Shown: positions 266-15,580 of the stretch, piece after piece | Layout: every line of letters starts with the position of its first letter | Position numbering within the stretch: the stretch's first letter is position 1 | Assembly (NCBI GenBank): GCA_963718915.1 | Contig: CAVRAI010000003.1 | Coordinates: 750,001 to 782,000 of the forward strand | From: an uncultured Chloroflexia bacterium | Lineage (GTDB): Bacteria; Chloroflexota; Ktedonobacteria; Ktedonobacterales; JADMIN01 | Direction: 5' to 3' | DNA length: 32,000 nt | Position numbers and translations under genes: made by a program | Notes under the pieces: model-generated | Seen by the model: only the letters and a program-made list of their open reading frames with translations | Database searches by the model: none | Told to the model about the DNA's origin: nothing

Positions 266-493
266 TCACCCAGCACTCTCTGACTCATCATCCCACTTGC
301 AGGGAGTGGTAGGGCCGTTTTTCGCTTCCTGTATCAGTTCATCCAGGAATGCGTCTGATTCGGGCGATTCCAGCAGCGCGTCCCAGCGGGCGTCGGCTAG
401 CCACGACTCGATCTGCGCGGCCAGCGCTTCCTGCGCCTCGGGCGAGAGTGTGGCGGCTTCATTTATCGCGGCTTGCAGTTTCTCGTTCAGCAT
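266..493 (-). CDS. small acidic helical protein, antitoxin-like (hypothetical)
   Basis: 75-aa ORF with a GGGAGG SD just upstream of the ATG. The ...LSPEAQEALAAQIE... helix resembles short addiction-module-type proteins and the ORF at 15103-15336. No partner toxin ORF is present. It lies 52 nt downstream of the VWA gene on the same strand. Confidence 0.45.
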   Translation of the reverse strand: MLNEKLQAAINEAATLSPEAQEALAAQIESWLADARWDALLESPESDAFLDELIQEAKNGPTTPCKWDDESESAG

Positions 494-545: not shown

Positions 546-1718
546 TCATCTCTCGGCGCGAGCGGTCACGATGTCATTGCGCGCCGCCCAGAGACTGAGG
601 TCGCGCTTCTGGATCGTCGCCGCCATCAGGTCGGGGAAGAGGTCGGGCGTGCAGGCGAACGACGGGATGCCGAGCGAGGCGAGCGTCGCCGCGTTGCGCT
701 GGTCGAAGCTGGGCGCGCCCTTATCGCTGAGCGCCAGCAGGCAGACCATCTGCACGCCACTCGCCGCGATCTCGCCCGCACGCCGCAGCATCTCTTGCGT
801 GTTGCCGCCCTCATAGAGGTCGGTTATCAGCACCAGAATGGTCTGCGCCGGGCGCGTGATAATCTGCTGGCAGTAGGCGAGCGCGCGGTTGATATCGGTG
901 CCGCCGCCCAGTTGCGTGCCAAAGAGCAGGTCTACCGGGTCCTGCAAATCCTCGGTCAGATCCACCACCGACGTATCGAAGACGACCATGCGCGTGCTGA
1001 CGGCGCGAATCGAGGCGAGCACCGCGCCGAAGATGCCCGCATAGACCACCGACGAGGCCATCGAGCCGCTCTGGTCCACGCACAGCACGATGTCGCGCAG
1101 GGCCGAGCGCTTGTGGCCGTAGCCGACAAGCTTCTCGGCGATGATCGTGCCACGGTCGCGCTGGTAGTTCTTCAGGTTGGCGCGGATGGTGCGATGCCAG
1201 TCAATCTCGTTGGCGCGGGGACGGTACGAGCGCGTGGCGCGGTTCAGGCTGCCACGGATCGCCTGCTGCATCGGGCTGGCCAGCTTGCGCTCCAGCTCCT
1301 CGACGACCTTGCGCACGACCGCCCGCGCCGTATCCTTGGTCTTGTCGGGTATGACGTGGCTGAGCGAGAGCAGCGTCGCCACCAGATGCACGTCGGCGTC
1401 CACCTGCTCCAGCATCTCCGGCTGGAGCAGCATCTGTGTCAGGTTGAGCCGCTCTAGCGCGTCCTGCTGCATCACGCGCACCGCCGTCGAGGGGAAATAG
1501 GTGCGGATGTCGCCCAGCCAGCGCGTGACGTTCGGCGATGAGCCGCCCAGGCCAGCTGACCGCTCGCCGTCGTAGAGCGCCGCAAGCACGTCATCCATGC
1601 CACGATCCACACCCACCAGCGCGCCTGTGCCCAGGCTTTCCTGCGCCGGGCCGCCGAGCGCCAACCGCCAGCGTCGCAGCCGCTCGTCTTCTATCGGATC
1701 AGTGATTGGTGTCGTCAT
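546..1718 (-). CDS. VWA domain protein, CoxE-like (MIDAS-containing)
   Basis: 390-aa ORF with a MIDAS motif in ...IVLCVDQSGSMASS... and a later ...ILVLITDLYEGG... VWA core strand. The ~200-aa N-terminal region resembles CoxE-type VWA proteins. The start overlaps the upstream gene by 20 nt. Confidence 0.85.
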   Translation of the reverse strand: MTTPITDPIEDERLRRWRLALGGPAQESLGTGALVGVDRGMDDVLAALYDGERSAGLGGSSPNVTRWLGDIRTYFPSTAVRVMQQDALERLNLTQMLLQPEMLEQVDADVHLVATLLSLSHVIPDKTKDTARAVVRKVVEELERKLASPMQQAIRGSLNRATRSYRPRANEIDWHRTIRANLKNYQRDRGTIIAEKLVGYGHKRSALRDIVLCVDQSGSMASSVVYAGIFGAVLASIRAVSTRMVVFDTSVVDLTEDLQDPVDLLFGTQLGGGTDINRALAYCQQIITRPAQTILVLITDLYEGGNTQEMLRRAGEIAASGVQMVCLLALSDKGAPSFDQRNAATLASLGIPSFACTPDLFPDLMAATIQKRDLSLWAARNDIVTARAER

Positions 1719-4014
1719 AGCTCACCCCCAAAATCCGCGCCAGCACCGGCAAGACCTGTCGTGCGCGCTCCTCGACCACCGCGCCTGTGGTATCGGTCGC
1801 CACAGCGGCGGCGGCGTGATGGAGATTCTTTACCTTCTCACCCATCGTCTGGCGGGCGGGGGCCTCGAAATCGCTGAAGGCGCGCCGTAAGAGCGGCAAG
1901 AGCGCCACGAACGTCTCGCCATCGAGCGCGGCCAGCCAGCCATCCAGCGCCAGCCAGAGGCCATCCTGCGCCATCATCATCTGCGCGCCGCCACGGAGCA
2001 CCCCCGCCACCCATGCGGCGGCCTCCGGCGCGGGTACCGCGGGCGAGAGGGTTAGCCCGGCCAGGCGGCGTAGCTCCTCCGTATCCACCACACCTTTTTC
2101 CAGCAATAAGCGGCAGCAGCGGCCACGCACCAGCCCGTGTACGCCGTCGCGCTCCATCACGACACGCAGCGCGCCCTGCCACGCCAGGCGCAGGTCGTCG
2201 CGCTGCAACATATCCATCGCCTGGTGCGCGCGTTCGATGCTCTCGATCATCTCATTGGCCGCGTCATCATCCAGCGAGGCGCAGGCCACCGGCAGCCCCA
2301 CGACGATACGGGCGTAGAGGTTATCCACGACCGGGAGCACTCGCTCGGCCCGCGTGCCGCGCACGTCGCCGTAGCGCGCGACCCTGGCGAGCGGCGGCGT
2401 GGCGTCCATCAGGCGGCGCACGTCGGCGGAGACCGCTGCCCGCGCCTGAATGTGCGTCAGCAGGTCATCCACCGCGCCGGGCAGATCGGCCAGCATCGCG
2501 CGATCCAGCAGCTCGGTCAGCTCGGCCAGATGGTCCGCTTTGGCGGCGGCGGCGCGGACGGCGGCGGTGGCGGCGGCCTCGATGGTGTTGCCCCAGATGT
2601 TCGCCTCGATAATCTTGACGGCGAACTCAGGCTGCCACTGTAGCCGCCAGTTCTCATGGAAGGTGCCGAGTACTCTCCCGGTGTACTGCTGTTCACCCCA
2701 TTCGATATTCAGCAGCCGCAGCGCATGCAGCAACTTGCTCCGCTCGCGGTCGTTGTCATTGCGCAGATCGAGGTCATAGTCCTTGAAATCCGCGTTTGCT
2801 GGCAGGCGCAGGCGTCGCTGGCGGGCCTCCAGGTCGCGCTGGAGCGGGACGGCGGGTGTCTCTGGCGGCACCTCGCCCATATGCTCGCCAATCTCCAGCT
2901 TCTCGCGAATCAGTGTCATCGGCGCCTCGTCGCCATTGCAGAGCACGGTGAGCGTCGCTTCGTGCATCTCATCCAGCCCCGGCATCGGCAGATCGCGCAT
3001 GGCCGCCAGCGCCTCGGTCAGCCGCACCGCCTCGATCACGCTGGCGCTGGAGACATCCAGGCCCTCGCTCCGCAGCAGGCGGGCCGCCCGCGACATCCAG
3101 CGAACGCCCATCCGGTCGGTGGTCGTCCAGAGGTGCTCGTACCAGCCGGGCGAACCGACGCCCGCGCCATAGCCACTGCGCCAGGAAAGCCGCGAGTTCG
3201 TCCACGGAATCCAGGTCGCCGCCACCTTCGTGCGCGGCAGTTTGCTCAGCAGCGCGGCGTCGCCCTTCATATCGTCGCGTTGCGCCAGCGCGGGAGTATG
3301 CCATGCGCCGCAGACAACGGCGATCCGGCTGAATCCCTCGCCCTCCGCCGTGCGGATGCCCTGGCGCATATGGGCCTCACGCAGCGCCTCTTCCTCGTCC
3401 TTGGGTGTCAGGTCGCTGCGGAGCGCGGTCATCGCCTCCAGGATGCCGTCGAAGAGGTCGTTGGCATTCTGGCGCTGCTCGATCTGGCGCTCCCACCACA
3501 GTTCGTGGTCGCTATAGCCCGCCGCTTCCGCTAGCATCGCCAGCGGATCATCACGCATGGCTGGCGCGTCGGTTGTCGGCGCCTCAGGCACGGCCTCGGC
3601 GACCAGATCAACGGCGCTATCAGCGACTGGAAGCCGCTCCGGCTCGTCCGTCTTGTCGGGCGCTTCTGGCGCGTCGGATACTTCGTCGGCTGCTTCCTGC
3701 GCCAGCCGCACCGCCTGCGGCAGATCAATGAAGCGCGCGGGAATATTGTGGGCCTGCGCGAAGCTCATTGCCTGCCACTCCGGCGAGAAAGTGGTGAAGG
3801 GATAGTAGACGGCGCGCGCGGGCGCATCGGGCGCGTAGATCAGCAGCGCGACCGGTGGCTTCATCGCCGGGTGCGTCAGCAGCGACAGCACCGCATGCGC
3901 GTCGGGTGGGCCTTCCACCAGCACAATATCCGGTTCGAGCCGTTCGAGCGCCTCGCGTAGCGCCCGCGCGCAGCCCGGCCCATGGTGGCGAATGCCAAAG
4001 ATGTGAGTGGTCAC
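1699..4014 (-). CDS. large uncharacterised protein, DUF5682-like
   Basis: 771-aa ORF. Its GTG start lies 12 nt after the ATPase stop, with a GAGGA SD. The N-terminus MTTHIFGIRHHGPGCARALREALERLEPDIVLVEGPPDA matches my recollection of DUF5682 N-termini. I see no other motif I can name. Confidence 0.7.
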   Translation of the reverse strand: MTTHIFGIRHHGPGCARALREALERLEPDIVLVEGPPDAHAVLSLLTHPAMKPPVALLIYAPDAPARAVYYPFTTFSPEWQAMSFAQAHNIPARFIDLPQAVRLAQEAADEVSDAPEAPDKTDEPERLPVADSAVDLVAEAVPEAPTTDAPAMRDDPLAMLAEAAGYSDHELWWERQIEQRQNANDLFDGILEAMTALRSDLTPKDEEEALREAHMRQGIRTAEGEGFSRIAVVCGAWHTPALAQRDDMKGDAALLSKLPRTKVAATWIPWTNSRLSWRSGYGAGVGSPGWYEHLWTTTDRMGVRWMSRAARLLRSEGLDVSSASVIEAVRLTEALAAMRDLPMPGLDEMHEATLTVLCNGDEAPMTLIREKLEIGEHMGEVPPETPAVPLQRDLEARQRRLRLPANADFKDYDLDLRNDNDRERSKLLHALRLLNIEWGEQQYTGRVLGTFHENWRLQWQPEFAVKIIEANIWGNTIEAAATAAVRAAAAKADHLAELTELLDRAMLADLPGAVDDLLTHIQARAAVSADVRRLMDATPPLARVARYGDVRGTRAERVLPVVDNLYARIVVGLPVACASLDDDAANEMIESIERAHQAMDMLQRDDLRLAWQGALRVVMERDGVHGLVRGRCCRLLLEKGVVDTEELRRLAGLTLSPAVPAPEAAAWVAGVLRGGAQMMMAQDGLWLALDGWLAALDGETFVALLPLLRRAFSDFEAPARQTMGEKVKNLHHAAAAVATDTTGAVVEERARQVLPVLARILGVSYDDTNH

Positions 4015-4026
4015 GGCGGCACGTCC

Positions 4027-6396
4027 TCAGATTACTTCGTGGCAGGCCCGATAGAAGTCTTTCCATCCATTGCGGTCCTTGACCACCGTCTGCAGATACT
4101 CCAGCCAGACGATACGATCCTGCACCGGGTCTTTGATGATCGCGCCGGTCAGCCCGGCGGCCAGATCACCCGCATGCATCGCGCCATCGCCATAGTAGGC
4201 GGCCATCGCCAATCCGTTGGTCATCACCGAGATGGCCTCGGCGGTAGAGAGCGTGCCAGAGGGCGACTTCAGTTTGGTCTTGCCGTCAGATGTTACACCA
4301 TCGCGCAGTTCGCGGAAGACTGTGACCACCCGGCGAATCTCCTCGAGCGCGGGCTTCTCGGCGGGCAGTTCCAGCGCGCGGCCAAGTTGCGCCACGCGGC
4401 GATCCACAATCTCCACCTCTTCATCCATGGTCGCGGGCAGCGGCAGCACGACCGTATTGAAGCGGCGCATCAACGCGCTCGATAGCTCGTTAACGCCCTT
4501 ATCGCGGTTATTGGCGGTCGCGATGACGTTAAAGCCCTTCCGCGCCTGCGCCTCTGTATTCAGTTCGGGCACGGGCAGTGTCTTCTCGGAGAGGATGGTA
4601 ATCAGCGTATCCTGCACCTCGGCGGGGATGCGGGTCAACTCCTCGATACGCGCCAGCCGCCCCTCACGCATCGCCCGCATCATCGGGCTGACTACCAGCG
4701 CCTCCGCCGACGGCCCCTCCACCAGCAGCCGCGCATAATTCCAGCCATAGCGGATGGCCGACTCGTCGGTGCCCGCGGTCCCCTGGATCATCAGCGTCGA
4801 GTCGCCCGTGATGGCGGCGGCCAGATGCTCAGAAACCCAACTGTTGTGGATGATGATGTCGTTGGCCACGAAATTGTGGGTATCAGCCATGCTCAAGTCA
4901 TACACCTGATGATCGCCAATCGGCTCAATCGAGACAATGGTATCCCAATAGATGGCGCTCTCGGCGAGTTGACGAAGTTCCTCGTTACGAGTAAGCGCCG
5001 CAAGGCGCATTAAGCGTGACCGCGAAATGCTTTGATGCGGACGAGCCGAAGCCTTAGCAGTCATCTTACGCTGATTTATATCGGCTTGTAGCAACATTCC
5101 TACACTGCTGTATCCTGAGCCAACGGCGGCGCTTTGGAGACGCACCCATATCTGTTGGGGAATTGTATCCAGATTGGGGTTGACCAATCCTCTAAAGGAC
5201 TCTAAATGGGCGTTAGCTTCTTGGATGTATTTGCGCCCCAAGAGTCCAATCTCGTTCAGGAAAATCCTACACTGCCCTGTTCCATGAATGAAGAGCCGGT
5301 AGTGTCCGCTAGACAAATGGCGGACACGTGAGTTGATGCCGAAGCGCAACAGCAAATGCTGCACGTCTCGTATCAATCGTTTCGATTTGCTCGCGTAATC
5401 AATGGTGACTTGTTTCTTGGGAGTGTTGCGCATGTGGAGGAATCCATCGCCACTGAACAAGCGATTAAGGAAGAGCGCCACTTGTCTTCTGGGCAACATG
5501 AAAACCAAATCGGGAATGAATTTGGTTCCTGAGTTCGTACCCATTAGCCCCAACTCTCGAAGCCATTGGGTGCATGGGTTTTGGAATTTGCCCCCACCTC
5601 CACGTTGTTGCCTTGAAACACTGCAAGTTCTGCCATCGGGATACCAGTGCGCTTGAAGGTCGGGAAAGGCTTCGGTGACCGCCTTACTGAAGTCATCCTT
5701 CATATCAAGATTGGTATTAGTAAAGTAAGGCAGTTCCTGAGTGAGCGTGCCTTCAGCAAGCAGATGAGCGAGCAATTTGACGTGCGCGTCACTTATCTTT
5801 GCTATTCCGAAATACGGCATCGATCGAGGAACCGCGATTCTGTTGCCCACCTCAAGTTTCTCGAGCGGACGCCAACCATCTATGGTAAGGAAGGGATGGT
5901 TGAGTGTCACCTCGATTTCCCGCCCCAAGTGGGTTGTAACGCGATAGCACGGGCGAATGCCGTTATCCACGTAGTCACTGGGAGCTTGTGATTTGAGCTG
6001 ATACTCGGGGTTTAAGGAGGCCACTTCAATGTTACGTGTTCTGCATGCTTCGGCGATGGTTACTCGTCTTCCAGTCCGCGTATCCAGTACCAGAGCGTCA
6101 TGTTTTACACACTTGGCGGTCCCCGGCAGCCCGTAGAGCAGCAGGGCGCGGTCGGTGGCGAGGGTGGCGACGGCGATCTCGATCAGGCGGGCGTTGCCAA
6201 TATATTTGGGCGAGATGGTGAAGCCGCTATCCAGTTTGCCGCCAAGCAGGTAGGTGCGCACGGCCCAGGGGGAAAGCGTCCAGTTGGGCGGACGCTGGCG
6301 GTCATCCACGCGCGCCAACTCGGCCAACTCTTCGGCGAATTGCTGCTCGGCGTGCTGGCGCAGGACGGCATCGTTGACGATGTTCTCAGAGGCCAT
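4027..6396 (-). CDS. AAA_5 / MoxR-type AAA+ ATPase, interrupted by an intein (precursor 789 aa, predicted spliced product 366 aa)
   Basis: Removing aa 96-518 restores Walker A as GLPGTAK|S. The downstream segments ...GRLARIEELTRIPAEVQDTLITILSEKTLPVPE... and ...FNVIATANNRDKGVNELSSALMRRF... are typical of MoxR/dynein-related AAA_5 ATPases. Confidence 0.9.
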   Translation of the reverse strand: MASENIVNDAVLRQHAEQQFAEELAELARVDDRQRPPNWTLSPWAVRTYLLGGKLDSGFTISPKYIGNARLIEIAVATLATDRALLLYGLPGTAKCVKHDALVLDTRTGRRVTIAEACRTRNIEVASLNPEYQLKSQAPSDYVDNGIRPCYRVTTHLGREIEVTLNHPFLTIDGWRPLEKLEVGNRIAVPRSMPYFGIAKISDAHVKLLAHLLAEGTLTQELPYFTNTNLDMKDDFSKAVTEAFPDLQAHWYPDGRTCSVSRQQRGGGGKFQNPCTQWLRELGLMGTNSGTKFIPDLVFMLPRRQVALFLNRLFSGDGFLHMRNTPKKQVTIDYASKSKRLIRDVQHLLLRFGINSRVRHLSSGHYRLFIHGTGQCRIFLNEIGLLGRKYIQEANAHLESFRGLVNPNLDTIPQQIWVRLQSAAVGSGYSSVGMLLQADINQRKMTAKASARPHQSISRSRLMRLAALTRNEELRQLAESAIYWDTIVSIEPIGDHQVYDLSMADTHNFVANDIIIHNSWVSEHLAAAITGDSTLMIQGTAGTDESAIRYGWNYARLLVEGPSAEALVVSPMMRAMREGRLARIEELTRIPAEVQDTLITILSEKTLPVPELNTEAQARKGFNVIATANNRDKGVNELSSALMRRFNTVVLPLPATMDEEVEIVDRRVAQLGRALELPAEKPALEEIRRVVTVFRELRDGVTSDGKTKLKSPSGTLSTAEAISVMTNGLAMAAYYGDGAMHAGDLAAGLTGAIIKDPVQDRIVWLEYLQTVVKDRNGWKDFYRACHEVI
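4843..6111 (-). mobile_element. 423-aa intein with LAGLIDADG homing-endonuclease domain, inserted in the Walker A P-loop
   Basis: Cys96 (tgt, 6109-6111) follows the Walker A Lys directly. Block B is TLNHPF. The two LAGLIDADG-type motifs are LLAHLLAEGTL and LNRLFSGDGFL. Blocks F/G read VYDLSMADTHNFVANDIIIHN, ending at Asn518 (aac, 4843-4845), followed by +1 Ser (agt, 4840-4842). GC is visibly lower than in the flanking extein DNA. Confidence 0.85.
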
Positions 6397-6522
6397 GGTA
6401 CTTCAATCTCCTCACATCAATTACGCGCGGGTTTACTCATAGGGCACGGTGGGTAGTTGGCCACGTTCGCGGCATGAATGCCGCGTCTAATCCTGACCGT
6501 ACCATACTCTTTCGATGGCAGG

Positions 6523-8100
6523 CTACGGCGCGCTCGCGCCCGGAATCTCGTCGCGGATGCGCTGGCGCTGGCGCACCGCCTTCAGGAACTGGTCGTGCTG
6601 CTCGCGCCACGTGACCGCCTGCCATCGGTTGTTGTTGTACTCGCCCATCTCCCAGGGCGAGAGCGCCTCGTCGAGGCATTCCGCTGGCAGGAGGGTCGCG
6701 TGTTCATCTGAGCATTCGCGCCAGTCGGGGGCGTAGCTCTTCAGCGACGCCAGTTCGTCGCGGGCGAAGGCGCGCAGACCCGCGAGCCATGCGCGCGCCA
6801 GCTCGACGCTCCATGGGCGAGGTAGAGCCGCCATCAGTGTATCCCACGCGATATCCTGCTTCGATTCGCCGTCCCGCAGGATTTTCAGCGCCATCGTCTC
6901 CAAGGCGGACTGTGGCAGCTTTGGCAGCAGTAACTCGCACATCTCCAGCGGCGCCACGCCACCGCTGGCGCGCTTGCCAAGCCGTTTGCTCCATGCCTCC
7001 ACCAGTGGCTGGACCCAGTGACTCGCATCATAGAGCACAGTGGCGCGTGACCAGCCCTCCAGGATTTCGACGCCATGCTCGTCGGTCGCGGCGGCGATCA
7101 GGTCGGCAGGCGACATCCCAAACCGCTCGACCCAGTGCGCGGGCGGTGTCACCGCGACGATCTGCATCAGCCACCACGAGCGCTCGCCCATCCCCTGTCG
7201 CGGCTTTGCCACGATGCCATCGCGCTCCCAGCTTTTCTCATGCGCCTCGGGCAGTGTCGTCGCCAGCTTCTTCTTGCCCATAGTCAGCAGCATATCGGCG
7301 CGAGCAATGGCGCGGGCCTGAAACGCCGAGCCGGGAATCCGCGCCAGTAGCCGCTGCGCCACGGCGCGCACGTTGCCGCTACGGTCGTCCAGCGCGGTTT
7401 CGAGCAGTTGCTCGTCAACGGCGGAGAGATTATTGGCCAGCGCCTCGACCAGTTCAGCGCGGAAATCGGCCTTCTCCTGCCGCCAGACCGCTGCGATCTC
7501 GTCGCGCGCCTTCGCCGGATCGGTGGATCGCCAGTGCGCCAGCATTTGCAGACGGTCAGCGGATGCGCCCTCCTGCCAGACGGCGTCGGCGTCGGCAGGC
7601 ATCTCATCGAGGCGATGTGTCAGGGAGTCGCGCACCCATGACCAGGCGCTATTGAAGCCGCCGAGCCACGCGCCACGCTCGCCCGCCACCTGCGCCATCA
7701 GCGGACGCTGCGCCACCGTCGCGCCGCCCAGCGCCAGCGGCAGCATCTCCGGCGGCAGAATCAGTCCAGCGGCAATCATGCGCTCCAGCGCCTCACGCAG
7801 CAGATCATTCGAGCGCGCGGTGAGCAACTGCTGTATCAGGTCGGCGACGTGCGCCGGGCAGACCGTTTTTGTTTCGGCGGGCGCAGGCTCCAGCGGCGCA
7901 TCCAGCCGTTCCGGCGCGTAGCCCGCCAGACCATAGATGGCGCGCGCACCGGCAGCCAGCAACAGCCGCTGCTCGATGTTGACATCCGCGAGTGGCCCCA
8001 CCAGCGATCCCTCAGGGGTGGCGAGGGCCAGCGCCTCATCCAGCGGGGCGCGGGCGGAGCCAACCAGCGCGGCGTTTGTGATGCGATCCATGCTGCCCAT
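6523..8100 (-). CDS. Ala/Leu-rich helical protein, DUF5691-like (uncharacterised)
   Basis: 525-aa ORF. Its ATG abuts the SWIM gene stop (8100/8101), with a GGGGAGGA SD. The composition suggests an all-helical repeat protein. The family assignment is from memory of this gene order and is unverified. Confidence 0.6.
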   Translation of the reverse strand: MGSMDRITNAALVGSARAPLDEALALATPEGSLVGPLADVNIEQRLLLAAGARAIYGLAGYAPERLDAPLEPAPAETKTVCPAHVADLIQQLLTARSNDLLREALERMIAAGLILPPEMLPLALGGATVAQRPLMAQVAGERGAWLGGFNSAWSWVRDSLTHRLDEMPADADAVWQEGASADRLQMLAHWRSTDPAKARDEIAAVWRQEKADFRAELVEALANNLSAVDEQLLETALDDRSGNVRAVAQRLLARIPGSAFQARAIARADMLLTMGKKKLATTLPEAHEKSWERDGIVAKPRQGMGERSWWLMQIVAVTPPAHWVERFGMSPADLIAAATDEHGVEILEGWSRATVLYDASHWVQPLVEAWSKRLGKRASGGVAPLEMCELLLPKLPQSALETMALKILRDGESKQDIAWDTLMAALPRPWSVELARAWLAGLRAFARDELASLKSYAPDWRECSDEHATLLPAECLDEALSPWEMGEYNNNRWQAVTWREQHDQFLKAVRQRQRIRDEIPGASAP

Positions 8101-9462
8101 CTAGTCGTCCTCCCCCAGTGGATGATAGACGCCATTGCTGAGCGCCCCCAGCGGACGGAACGCGCGCCCATCCCACTCGCCAGCCACATCCACCGGATGC
8201 CCGCCAGAGATCGCCAGCAGCGGCCAGTGGTCACCGGAGGTCACGGGCAGCGCCGCGCCATCGGCGTCACGCACGCGCCAGACGCCCGTAGCGGAATCGT
8301 AGTGTGGCGTCACCTGCGCGAGCACCGCCAGAAAGCGCTCCTGCCACGGCTGGCGCGCGAGCGATGCGGCGACTCCAGCGAGAAACGGCTCGATGGCGCA
8401 GGCGCCGGGAAGCGGGCCAGTCAGCGAATGGACATCACCCTGGCGAACCATCAGGGACGCGCGTTGCGGGCTGGCGCCGGGCCAGAATCCCAACTCCGCC
8501 CGCTGGCTCACGCCGGGCATCAGCAATTCAGCGAAGGGCCTGCCGGGCAACGCGAACTGCACAATCAGGGCGGTTCGTCCAGTGGAGTAGCCGCGCAGCC
8601 AGGTATATTGCGACTGGCCACCTATTGAGCCGCGATCCTGCGTCTCGACCCACTGGCCGAGGAATGCCCAATCGTCGCTGATGCGCTCGCCTTGCGTCTC
8701 CAGATCAGCGGCGTTGTAATTCCAGCCGACGAGATGGCGCACATCCTCATGCAGCGCGGGATCGAGCGCATCCAGCCGGGCGAACGCCTGCGTCACCAGC
8801 GCGACGCGGCCCAGATCGCCAAGCAGCCGATCCGGCCAGTCTGGCGTGGAGCCGGGGAGCGTCGCCATTGTCCGCAGCCGTCCGGCGATACCCTGCGCCT
8901 GCGCGTCGGTCATGCGCGCCGCCTGCGCCTCCCAGAAGCTTTCGGGCTGCGTCTCGGCAGCGGCCAGCCCATTACGCACGAGGTCATCAAGCCAGAGATT
9001 CAGTCCGGCGATACCATCGGCGACCAGCTTCTCGCGTTTCTCGGCACGTTTGGCTTTGCCTTTCTCTCGCGCCTGCTCTTTGGCGGCGGCCTCCTCGGGC
9101 GAGAGCGTCTCCTCGGCGGCATGCTTTTCCTCGTGGGAGTGGCGCTTGGCCAGCCAGTCGGCCACCCAGGATGGCGGCTCCGCCTCGGCCACATCGCTTG
9201 CTTTAGCGGCGAAGATCAGCATCAGGCCAAGCCCATGTTTGCAGGGAAATTTGCGGCTGGGACAGCTGCATTTGACGCTGAGCGTCGCCAGGTCCACCTC
9301 TACTCTATAAGGGGCTTTGCCGCTGCCCTGGCACTCGCCCCAGAGAGCGTCAGGATTACGGCCAAGTGACTTCCACTGGCGGGTGTTGGCAAGCTTGCGT
9401 CCCGCGGCGGCGGATGCGCTATCTGGGGCGAGGGCAAGCGCCTGCTCGCTGGTAAATGGCAT
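8101..9462 (-). CDS. SWIM zinc-finger protein
   Basis: 453-aa ORF with the SWIM signature CSCPSRKFPCKH (CxCx6CxH) at aa 65-76. A Lys/Glu-rich linker (...EEAAAKEQAREKGKAKRAEKREK...) and a ~300-aa C-terminal domain follow. A GGAGAGGGAGAG SD precedes the ATG. Confidence 0.85.
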   Translation of the reverse strand: MPFTSEQALALAPDSASAAAGRKLANTRQWKSLGRNPDALWGECQGSGKAPYRVEVDLATLSVKCSCPSRKFPCKHGLGLMLIFAAKASDVAEAEPPSWVADWLAKRHSHEEKHAAEETLSPEEAAAKEQAREKGKAKRAEKREKLVADGIAGLNLWLDDLVRNGLAAAETQPESFWEAQAARMTDAQAQGIAGRLRTMATLPGSTPDWPDRLLGDLGRVALVTQAFARLDALDPALHEDVRHLVGWNYNAADLETQGERISDDWAFLGQWVETQDRGSIGGQSQYTWLRGYSTGRTALIVQFALPGRPFAELLMPGVSQRAELGFWPGASPQRASLMVRQGDVHSLTGPLPGACAIEPFLAGVAASLARQPWQERFLAVLAQVTPHYDSATGVWRVRDADGAALPVTSGDHWPLLAISGGHPVDVAGEWDGRAFRPLGALSNGVYHPLGEDD

Positions 9463-9610
9463 CGTCTCTCCCTCTCCGCTGCCCCCTGAGCCACCTGATG
9501 GCCCTTTCTGATCATCAGTCTATTCCCTGGAAGCCAGCCAGAAGCGGTCAGCGCTCCCCACATGGAGACATGACGAATTCGACTCTCCTCCCACCCCTTT
9601 CGTATGATAC

Positions 9611-9720
9611 TGATTTCGTTTGGATTGTTGTCCTTGGGGGCCGACCGTAGCGTGAACGCTACGGCGAATGGGGTTGGGAAATTAGCCGCAGCCTTCAGGC
9701 TGCGGTCGGCCCACCCCAAC
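9611..9720. repeat. cluster of GC-rich hairpin modules (REP/MITE-like)
   Basis: Perfect hairpins ccgtagcg-tgaa-cgctacgg (9645-9664) and ccgcagcc-ttca-ggctgcgg (9685-9704). The same modules recur inverted at 11119-11200. Related modules occur at 14849-14888 and 15441-15480. Confidence 0.7.
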
Positions 9721-9893
9721 GGCAACAACCCAGCCTAAACGGGTATGAGTAGAAGCGGTAAGAGCGAGTGTCAATCGTCCTATGATACCGCCGTTGCGGG
9801 CAATACACAACGCGCAAAAAGCGAGCGCGCCCTGAACTCGGCAAAATCGCTGGTTGGGCGCGCTGCGTATCGGTACTGCTGCGGACGGTGAGC

Positions 9894-9953
9894 GCTGGCG
9901 GCTGAAGCCGCGCCTATGGGCCGCTGGCCGCAAAGCCCGCCTGCGCGGGCTGG
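9894..9953. repeat. 60-nt intergenic repeat, copy 1 (gctggcggctgaagccgcgcct...ccgcaaagcccgcctgcgcggg)
   Basis: Near-identical copy at 13332-13390, an inverted copy at 15526-15580 and a diverged inverted copy at 14936-15008. Confidence 0.8.
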
Positions 9954-9996
9954 TCAGACTATACCCCTACTTATCCACCTGCATTGTTCGCATAGT

Positions 9997-10039
9997 CCCT
10001 CCCCTCGTAGGGGAGGGTGGCCGAAGGCCGGGAGGGGTC
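9997..10039. repeat. 43-nt double-hairpin repeat immediately downstream of map
   Basis: The sequence ccctcccctcgtaggggagggtggccgaaggccgggaggggtc contains the hairpins ccctcccc/ggggaggg and ggcc-gaa-ggcc. An inverted copy with 41/43 identity lies at 10937-10979. Confidence 0.8.
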
Positions 10040-10046
10040 TGTAGCC

Positions 10047-12166: not shown

Positions 12167-13305
12167 TTAGCTCCTGGCCTTGATCTCGGCGACGATCTTC
12201 TGCGCGCCGTCGCGCATGTCTGCGCCCCAGGTGAGGCCAGCGTCGGCCAGCAGGGCGCGGCCCTCAACCTCGCCGGTGCCGGAGAGGCGGGCGACGATAG
12301 GCATGCCCTTGGGAAGCTCGCCCTGGGCCATGATAATGCCCTTCGCCACCTCTTCGCCACGGGTGATACCGCCGAAGATATTGACCAGAATGCCGCGCAC
12401 CTGGGGGTCGCGGGCGACGAAGAGCAGCGCCTTCTTCATCACCTCGGCCTTGGCGCCGCCGCCGATATCGAGGAAGTTAGCGGGTTTGCCACCGGAGCGG
12501 GCGACCATATCGAGCGTCGTCATGACGAGGCCCGCGCCGTTGCCGATGATGCCAACATCGCCGTCGAGCTTGACGTAGGTCAGCCCCTCGCCCTTCGCCT
12601 CGAACTCCAGTGGGTTCGCCTCTTCCGGCTCGGCCCAACTGGCGTACTCTTTCTGGCGCGGCAGGCCATTGTCGTCAATCAGGATTTTGCCGTCGGCGGC
12701 GAGCACCTGACCATCAGCGGTGAGGGCGAGCGGGTTGATCTCGGCGAGCGTTGCGTCGCTGCCCTCATAGGCGCGGGCCAGCGCGGCGAGAATCGCGCCG
12801 CCCTTCGCGACGACGCTGGAGGGCATGCCCGCCCGTGCGAGCAGTTCGCGCGCCTGCCATGCGGGCAGTCCCCAGCGCACGTCGATAGTGTGCTTGATGA
12901 TCTTTTCGGGCGTCGTCTCGGCGACCTCTTCGATATCGACGCCGCCCGCCGCGCTGACCATGACGACCGGGGCCTGGCTGGCGCGGTCGAGGACGATGCC
13001 GACGTAGTATTCATCGCGATGGCGATCTTGGGTGTAACCAGGACTTTCTCGACGGTCAGCCCTTTGATGTCCATCCCAAGCACACGGCTCGCGGCGTCGC
13101 GCGCCTGCTCGGGCGTATCGCCAAACTGGATGCCGCCCGCCTTGCCACGTCCGCCGACGTAGACCTGCGCTTTGATGACGACCGGCTCGCCAAACTCGCG
13201 GGCGATCTCCTCGGCCTGTTCCGGCGTGGTGGCGATTTTGCCCGGCTGCACGGGGATGCCGTACCGGCGCATGATTTCTTTCGCCTGGTACTCATGAATC
13301 TTCAA
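12167..13305 (-). pseudogene. sucC: succinyl-CoA synthetase beta subunit, reading frame broken by a 1-nt deletion (or sequencing error)
   Basis: TTG start at 13305 with a GGGAG SD gives (M)[18 protein letters not shown]... in one frame up to ...[10 protein letters not shown]. The homologous continuation [30 protein letters not shown]... is in another frame. Only 2 nt (13013-13014) separate the two frames. Confidence 0.9.
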
Positions 13306-13331
13306 TGGTTCAGCTCCCTGAAATAAATACC

Positions 13332-13390
13332 GCTGGCGGCTGAAGCCGCGCCTAAGGGCCTTCGACCGCAAAGCCCGCCTGCGCGGGCTA
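13332..13390. repeat. 60-nt intergenic repeat, copy 2
   Basis: gctggcggctgaagccgcgcctaagggccttcgaccgcaaagcccgcctgcgcgggcta is nearly identical to 9894-9953. Confidence 0.8.
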
Positions 13391-13545
13391 GCAGAATTGG
13401 TGGCACATGGCTCCGTTGCCATGTGGCGTCATGCGTTGCCCTGCCAAATAGCTCTACTCAGAGATAGTACCACGAGCTATGGCGGCTGGCCGCTCCATCT
13501 ACTCAGTCACTCTTTGAGATACGATGCAGTTGTCGGATCATACGC

Positions 13546-15440: not shown

Positions 15441-15580
15441 GCCGCAGGCTGAAGACCTGCGGCTAATCCTGATTGTTTGGCGCTTCTGTCGATGGCGAAC
15501 GGGTGCATGCAAAGCGGTCTGGGAGGCCGCGCAGGCGGCCTTTGCGGCGTAGCCCTTAGGCGCGGCTTCAGCCGCCAGCC
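15441..15580. repeat. ~150-nt composite hairpin-module element, copy B
   Basis: gccgcaggctgaagacctgcggctaatcctgattgtttgg (15441-15480, 38/40 identical to 14849-14888), a related spacer, then an inverted copy of the 60-nt repeat (15526-15580). Confidence 0.7.

Follow-up and report, generated by a model that had tools for sequence, protein, structure and literature searches.

Among the closest known relatives of the locus considered here are bacterial machines in which a MoxR-class AAA+ ATPase is encoded next to a protein whose von Willebrand factor A (VWA) domain carries a metal ion-dependent adhesion site (MIDAS), and the characterised pairs of this kind are RavA-ViaA, NorQ-NorD, CbbQ-CbbO, CoxD-CoxE and the I/D or S/T subunits of the Mg/Co-chelatases. 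The locus is a run of five genes on the minus strand of a 32,000-nucleotide stretch of DNA, referred to below as the window, from an uncultured Ktedonobacterales bacterium of the Chloroflexota (contig CAVRAI010000003.1, positions 750,001 to 782,000). It shares with the characterised pairs the MoxR motor and the adjacently encoded MIDAS-bearing partner, the partner being of the CoxE type and the motor detectably related to NorQ, but it differs from them in two respects. The characterised pairs act on an identified client (nitric oxide reductase, Rubisco, carbon monoxide dehydrogenase, LdcI/Nuo or a porphyrin), whereas no client is linked to the window cassette; and the window cassette, unlike those pairs, always co-encodes three large dedicated proteins, which together comprise about 1750 amino acids (aa). 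Midasin/Rea1 resembles the window in coupling an AAA_5 motor to a MIDAS domain that pulls a protein ligand, and it supplies the best match of solved structure to the window ATPase (3e-13), but its six AAA modules lie in one giant polypeptide, whose targets are pre-60S ribosomes, and the window provides no evidence of a ribosomal role.

MoxR proteins have been divided into seven subfamilies, namely MRP, APE0892, RavA, CGN, APE2220, PA2707 and YehL (PMC3893208), of which the last is the one that matters for the present locus. In Escherichia coli K-12, the yehL gene (“putative AAA(+) MoxR family ATPase”) lies in a one-direction run with overlapping junctions that consists of yehI (DUF4132), yehK, yehL, yehM, yehP (VWA) and yehQ (SWIM), and Pfam profiles identify AAA_5 in yehL, DUF5682 in yehM (2e-98), VWA_CoxE in yehP and SWIM in yehQ. 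In 5,210 of 5,426 complete E. coli genomes (96%) the set yehLMPQ lies on the chromosome in one copy, and yehL and yehM are de-repressed in hns/stpA mutants (PMC3686432). Literature searches returned no papers under the names DUF5682 and DUF5691, and for yehL, yehM, yehP and yehQ they returned incidental mentions only and no functional study.

In the window, a six-frame list of open reading frames (ORFs) contains all five genes intact, without frameshifts and on the same strand. In the order in which they would be transcribed, they encode a SWIM zinc-finger protein (8101-9462; 453 aa, Pfam SWIM 4e-5), a DUF5691 protein (6523-8100; 525 aa, Pfam DUF5691 1e-115), the precursor of a YehL-type MoxR AAA+ ATPase (4027-6396; 789 aa, Pfam AAA_5 3e-30 together with Intein_splicing and LAGLIDADG_3), a DUF5682/YehM-family protein (1699-4014; 771 aa with a GTG start, Pfam DUF5682 1e-264) and a CoxE-type VWA protein (546-1718; 390 aa, Pfam VWA_CoxE 4e-50). 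The SWIM and DUF5691 genes abut (8101/8100), gaps of 126 nt (6397-6522) and 12 nt (4015-4026) precede and follow the ATPase gene, and the start of the VWA gene overlaps the end of the DUF5682 gene by 20 nt (1699-1718). The five genes are a real, operon-like unit, conserved widely among bacteria and built around the MoxR ATPase and its VWA partner. The original prediction, which was made from the letters of the window, had given this arrangement, its coordinates and its junctions correctly; the peptide motifs that it quoted (CSCPSRKFPCKH and DQSGS) are found in the translations, and its assignments to SWIM, AAA_5, VWA_CoxE, DUF5691 and DUF5682 were all borne out by the Pfam profile search. In the ATPase ORF its AAA_5/MoxR call was sound, but a 423-aa intein that occupies more than half of the 789-aa frame had been overlooked.

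The locus is very probably a YehL-type MoxR-VWA cassette whose counterpart in E. coli is yehLMPQ. The AAA_5 ATPase is nearest to YehL by identity, the DUF5682 gene lies downstream of it, a CoxE-type VWA gene with an intact MIDAS follows the DUF5682 gene, and a SWIM gene is present in the operon; in tblastn searches of annotated plasmid records, E. coli genes annotated as “yehM: DUF5682 family protein” were matched. Both loci have the AAA_5, DUF5682, VWA_CoxE and SWIM families, the core order AAA-DUF5682-VWA, tight or overlapping junctions, and the same ATPase and MIDAS motifs. Identity to the K-12 proteins is 42% for the ATPase and YehL, 27% for the DUF5682 protein and YehM, and 34% for the VWA protein and YehP, and the match of the ATPase, without its intein, to YehL extends over the full length at E=7e-81, compared to a mere 1e-5 for NorQ. 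The original prediction's description of the operon as an undescribed machine was therefore overstated, since the core together with SWIM corresponds to yehL-yehM-yehP-yehQ and YehL is already a named MoxR subfamily (PMC3893208); judged by its families and their order, this kind of cassette is one that has been catalogued. The accompanying statement that the three large partners have no characterised role has held up, both in the literature and in the lack of any solved structure detectable by sequence.

The two loci differ in their accessory genes. In E. coli, yehQ (SWIM, 614 aa) lies downstream of the core, while the SWIM gene of the window lies upstream; the yeh locus has no DUF5691 gene, and has DUF4132 (yehI), yehK and WGR/MolR-like pseudogenes upstream instead; and YehL lacks the intein that is present in the window ATPase. 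Beyond the SWIM finger there is no detectable similarity between the accessory proteins of the two loci. Alignment with hhalign of the DUF5691 protein to YehI and YehQ, and of the SWIM protein to YehQ, gave nothing significant, but these are weak negatives, as a true SWIM-SWIM match also scored as insignificant. The window locus belongs to a DUF5691-bearing subtype of the YehL-type cassette, with an intein in the P-loop. The K-12 locus (L081, 475-8290) carries yehF (PF05406 family), the yehH pseudogene, the gene for the 1,210-aa YehI (DUF4132) and yehK upstream of yehLMPQ, and in the E. coli subtype these genes may stand in for DUF5691 as accessory partners. We take PF05406 to be the WGR domain and yehH to be the old “molR” locus, and the upstream genes offer a hint of a link to nucleic acids or molybdate.

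Relatives of the locus were sought with peptide patterns from the DUF5682 protein in one genome per GTDB species, which yielded at least 589 confirmed relatives; among the matches listed, the closest are metagenome-assembled genomes (MAGs) of Ktedonobacterales, with 90% and 87% identity, which places the window in the class Ktedonobacteria of the Chloroflexota. For the analysis of synteny, the five window proteins were compared by tblastn to 80 related loci (numbered with the prefix L), 53 of which have enough flanking DNA. All five genes are present, collinear and compact, in 46 of these 53, always in the order SWIM / DUF5691 / AAA_5 / DUF5682 / VWA_CoxE, an arrangement that is not due to chance, and the ATPase and DUF5682 genes are adjacent in 48. 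Complete loci occur in Chloroflexota, Planctomycetota, Cyanobacteria, Betaproteobacteria (Massilia, Azovibrio and Viridibacterium) and Bacteroidota, and a Rhizobium etli plasmid is annotated with SWIM / DUF5691 / AAA / DUF5682 / VWA, which is the exact order of the window. This is the order that the original prediction had described as recurrent, and the survey of gene neighbourhoods that it had proposed bore it out. Clustering of flanking ORFs found no flanking gene conserved beyond close relatives, and the neighbours in the window are of housekeeping type. The incomplete loci are mostly cassettes split by insertions, and among L039, L053, L054, L055, L057, L072 and L075 are several cyanobacterial or planctomycete cassettes that are interrupted by multi-kb insertions or have no detectable partners within 10 kb. 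One MAG (MFD05502.bin.2.81) has two DUF5682 loci (L030 and L013), one of which has no SWIM, DUF5691 or AAA gene nearby and a fragmented DUF5682 match.

Conservation across the loci, measured by tblastn identity, decreases from the ATPase without its intein (71-98%) through the VWA protein (58-97%), the DUF5682 protein (43-90%) and the SWIM protein (35-88%) to the DUF5691 protein (26-86%), which is conserved least of the five. When 1.84 billion cluster representatives (50% identity) were searched with a DUF5682 profile, 5,306 clusters matched at E≤1e-3, and 2,223 of them reached E≤1e-30. Lengths among the top 150 DUF5682 representatives run from 574 to 905 aa, a range which suggests that DUF5682 has no recurrent fusion partners.

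The intein (4843-6111, minus strand; 423 aa, identified by Pfam and NCBIfam intein models) lies within the Walker A loop, where it separates the catalytic K95 from S96 (GLPGTAK/C...HN/S, where slashes mark its boundaries), the translation reading ...LLYGLPGTAK/CVKHD...IIHN/SWVSEH... at the two junctions. The Pfam Intein_splicing and LAGLIDADG_3 matches fall between the two halves of AAA_5, and NCBIfam models for both intein termini (intein_Nterm and intein_Cterm) match, the best match overall being to the DnaB model PRK07773, through its intein segment (1e-96). The spliced ATPase extein is 366 aa long, and a typical MoxR protein has about 360 aa. The intein has the residues of a class 1 intein (C1, T69-x-x-H72, H422-N423 and a +1 Ser), and E120 and D222 are located in its LAGLIDADG-like motifs. 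Its GC content of 0.506, compared to 0.63-0.66 in the exteins, and its GC content at third codon positions of 0.56, compared to 0.79, account for the dip in the composition profile. Among the 80 related loci the intein is found in only four (L002, L014, L032 and L058), all from Ktedonobacterales and all at the same site. Between the five copies, that of the window included, identity is 67-84%, against 82-98% for the exteins, and the canonical intein residues, both LAGLIDADG acidic residues among them, are kept in all five. We infer that the intein is live and mobile, and that the ATPase would be functional only after splicing. Inteins typically occupy conserved sites such as the P-loop, and the present one may be a DnaB-type intein that has moved to a new P-loop site. 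The ATPase itself, compared across 32 homologues of which YehL is one, is invariant at G89, P91, G92, T93 and K95 of Walker A, at E162 and E163 of Walker B, at N206, and at R221 and R222; its nearest relatives of solved structure are the Midasin AAA modules and, with E=1e-5, NorQ.

The VWA protein has a complete MIDAS (D215-x-S217-x-S219, T274 and D300), invariant in 31 homologues including YehP; as a single sequence it found no match among the PDB sequences. In the SWIM protein the domain is N-terminal (aa ~30-82), with its zinc ligands C65, C67, C74 and H76 (CxCxnCxH) invariant in 32 homologues, and is followed by a charged linker and a C-terminal domain of about 300 aa that matches nothing. 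The DUF5691 protein is helical, with weak matches to HEAT in 9 and to HEAT_2 in 6 of 25 homologues. Profile searches of PDB sequences found no relative of solved structure for either the SWIM or the DUF5691 protein. On a plasmid of Hymenobacter sp. HDW8 the two are fused in one protein of 1,009 aa (L083, 4183-7212), and this fusion is evidence that SWIM and DUF5691 act together. The same plasmid has an extra ORF for a 203-aa hydrophobic protein (8362-8973) with no Pfam match between the ATPase and DUF5682 genes, and genes for a PDDEXK nuclease and a recombinase directly downstream of the cassette.

The DUF5682 protein was modelled with AlphaFold2 from an alignment of 55 sequences, with a predicted local distance difference test (pLDDT) score of 74.9 for the full length and 72.2 for residues 1-400. 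The model has an α/β N-domain (aa 1-270) of the order β1-α-β2-α-β3-β4-α-β5-α, a disordered acidic insert at 114-155, further helices, β6 and β7, and a C-terminal half that forms a well-modelled helical repeat. The invariant residues are concentrated in the N-domain: G7-x-R9-H10-H11-G12 after β1, E34 after β2, S77-P-E79-W80, R94 and D97, R212-E213 and R217 on the helix preceding β6, and C235-G236-x-x-H239 after β6, so that the domain contains two invariant GxxH motifs. A conserved loop, GYGAGxxSPGWY, follows, in which G281-Y-G-A-G285 is invariant.

These features recall the TIKI/TraB/ChaN/erythromycin-esterase superfamily, for whose TIKI members a signature of two His and two Glu plus an Arg has been described (PMC6254334). 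In the DUF5682 N-domain, which has an α/β architecture, a His follows β1 and a Glu follows β2, and there are also an Arg/Glu helix and, behind a later strand, a second GxxH. This arrangement resembles the TIKI signature and the motifs of YbaP, but no match to the superfamily by sequence, profile or Foldseek reached statistical significance. Neither the whole DUF5682 protein nor its N-domain had a significant PDB match in sequence, profile or Foldseek searches, and Pfam searches at E≤10 with the N-domains of 33 homologues returned no TraB, ChaN or Ere match. In hhalign comparisons, for which the TraB targets were E. coli YbaP alone and an alignment of 17 enterobacterial sequences (close YbaP orthologues, and thus a shallow profile), G-x-x-H10 and E34 were aligned with the GxxH and VE motifs of YbaP, at a score that is not significant. 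A histidine-phosphatase (RHG) reading of the RHHG motif was prompted by three folds of that kind in the lower part of the Foldseek list, but it was not adopted, as the context of the second His and the motif after β2 fit it worse. A speculative extension, which is quite improbable, is that DUF5682/YehM is a latent TIKI/TraB-like hydrolase (a protease or esterase) that is opened or fed by the MoxR-VWA motor under the control of a SWIM-HEAT sensor.

The reading that we favour, with a probability of roughly 0.55, is that the cassette encodes a self-contained MoxR-VWA remodelling machine, in which the DUF5682 protein and a SWIM-DUF5691 scaffold are the partners, and that it serves cellular physiology rather than defence against phage. 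The ATPase precursor would first splice out its LAGLIDADG intein, and, to judge from the intact splicing residues, only the 366-aa product would bind ATP. By analogy with RavA-ViaA, NorQ-NorD, CbbQ-CbbO, CoxD-CoxE, the chelatases and Midasin, the spliced MoxR protein would assemble into an AAA+ ring and act together with the CoxE-type VWA protein; the MIDAS of the latter would grip an acidic residue of a partner while ATP hydrolysis remodels or releases that partner. The remodelled partners would be the co-encoded proteins, DUF5682/YehM and the SWIM-DUF5691 scaffold: the obligatory co-occurrence of the genes, their close junctions and the Hymenobacter fusion argue that the cassette encodes a complex of its own rather than a helper for a linked client. 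The His/Glu/Arg site of DUF5682 might be hydrolase-like or might bind a metal or cofactor, in the manner of TIKI/TraB/ChaN, with access or loading gated by the ATPase and VWA proteins, and the machine as a whole would be conditionally expressed, with a role in remodelling or maturation.

The alternative that the original prediction had named beside client remodelling is an NTP-dependent conflict or anti-phage system, in which SWIM and DUF5691 would sense an invader molecule, the MoxR-VWA pair would license a response and the part of effector would fall to DUF5682, perhaps as a TIKI-like protease or esterase. A MoxR-vWA pair does form the core of several predicted conflict systems, and the phyla in which these are enriched (Chloroflexi, Cyanobacteria, Planctomycetes and Actinobacteria; PMC7159879) are shared with the cassette; but the ternary systems described there (Kaur et al. 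2020), with which the prediction had linked the operon, are of four types (VMAP, iSTAND, FtsH and beta-propeller), the cassette is not one of them, and the paper makes no mention of SWIM (PMC7159879). Their third components are different from those of the window, where Pfam finds SWIM, DUF5691 and DUF5682 as the only extra partners and where there are no variable effector or effector-associated (EAD) domains, and the bpMoxR model scores only with YehL, below threshold. It is also in keeping with defence that the cassette travels as one block, turning up in genomic settings unrelated to one another and on large plasmids and megaplasmids, that its patchy phyletic spread would fit a mobile conflict system, that the motor (71-87% identity) has changed far more slowly than SWIM and DUF5691 (26-50%), and that yehL and yehM are up in hns/stpA mutants. 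Against these points, the PADLOC-DB v2 models match none of the five proteins, their only hits being homing-endonuclease models in the intein and a weak DpdE match in the SWIM region (E=2e-4). The architecture is fixed, with uniform DUF5682 lengths and no hypervariable effector fusions, the motor is unusually conserved for a comparison across phyla, and no conserved flanks accompany the cassette, whose neighbours in the window are genes for methionine aminopeptidase (map), succinyl-CoA ligase (sucCD), a deacetylase-family protein and a shikimate dehydrogenase-like protein (aroE-like). Defence systems are typically sporadic, whereas the near-universal, single-copy presence of yehLMPQ in E. coli is the pattern of core genes; and a search of 2.9 million viral contigs gave one weak yehM-like hit. 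A phage origin was rejected separately, as the single “phage” GenBank record is flagged UNVERIFIED, carries MgsA and a polysaccharide deacetylase, and looks like a bacterial contig. Taken with these results, a role in defence is unlikely.

Somewhat less probable again is a chelatase-like machine for the insertion of a metal or cofactor, with DUF5682 as the large subunit, ligand-binding or catalytic, in the place of CobN/BchH, the AAA_5 ATPase in that of CobS/BchI and the VWA protein in that of CobT/BchD, or else a machine for the maturation of an external metalloenzyme in the manner of CoxD-CoxE and NorQ-NorD. The characterised bacterial MoxR-VWA pairs (NorQD, CoxDE, CbbQO and the Mg-/Co-chelatases) each serve particular client enzymes, for the most part at their metal sites, and the CoxE family of the VWA protein, the presence of NorQ among the closest solved ATPases and the invariant His/Glu/Cys/Arg cluster of DUF5682 all agree with such a role; but no client enzyme gene is linked to the cassette in any phylum, neither a riboswitch nor a metal-related gene lies nearby, DUF5682 has no similarity to CobN or BchH, and such a machine would leave SWIM and DUF5691 without an explained role. 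That the operon is instead a decaying or inactive remnant, its ATPase killed by the P-loop intein in this genome, would account for an essential Walker A motif being broken by an element that its GC content marks as foreign. This is highly improbable in view of the five intact ORFs, the retention of C1, TxxH, HN and the +1 Ser in all five intein copies, and the divergence of those copies to 67-84% identity while the exteins have stayed at 82-98%.

The original prediction had suggested a possible sixth member of the operon, a 75-aa acidic ORF downstream of the VWA gene (266-493, minus strand). The ORF exists and has a good Shine-Dalgarno sequence, but it has no match to a Pfam, NCBIfam or PADLOC family and, in tblastn against the 80 loci, it recurs only in the nearest relatives, with 91% identity in L051 and in part in L002; it is therefore, on this distribution, not a member of the conserved cassette. 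The ORF beyond it is short and uninformative. Upstream of the operon, a 584-nt intergenic region (9463-10046, minus strand) is presumed to contain the operon's own promoter; Rfam finds no riboswitch or other RNA element there, and a scan for promoters and terminators gave matches at chance level. A 24-nt palindrome, CCGCAAAGCCCGCCTGCGCGGGCT, is present in three copies where none is expected by chance, at 9928-9951 (plus), 13366-13389 (plus) and 15524-15547 (minus), the third with two mismatches. Rfam labels it CRISPR-DR28, but no array is present, and it is probably a dispersed hairpin like the repetitive extragenic palindromic (REP) elements, or a terminator; the first copy is just downstream of the preceding map gene, between map and the upstream region of the operon. 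The neighbouring sucC gene is split (12167-13422, minus strand) into overlapping ORFs at 12679-13422, with the N-terminal half of ATP-grasp_2, and at 12167-12961, with its C-terminal half and the CoA-ligase domain, which looks like a frameshift, a pseudogene or an assembly error; in L003, a close relative, the sucC homologue seems to be intact, with about 408 aa.

The window alone reveals no new kind of system, and the analysis argues against the fashionable reading of such loci as defence systems; what it provides is a better-framed question, namely what yehLMPQ-type machines do. A family of this size, with five conserved components, leaves a genuine hole in the bacterial “y-ome”, and the link now drawn from the DUF5691-type cassette of Chloroflexota, Planctomycetota, Cyanobacteria and Proteobacteria to yehLMPQ makes the hypotheses given here testable in the most tractable organism, with the Walker A and B residues, the MIDAS, H10, E34, E213 and H239 of DUF5682, and the SWIM cysteines as residues for mutation. 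With the P-loop intein, a MoxR ATPase has acquired a conditional switch of natural origin, and the element seems to be related to DnaB inteins but to occupy a new insertion site. If the DUF5682 protein were indeed a latent hydrolase, the cassette would encode a processing machine licensed by ATP, of a sort not recognised before and conserved from E. coli to Chloroflexota, and in the present lineage it would be subject to an additional control, as its motor would exist only after the intein has been spliced out of the P-loop.

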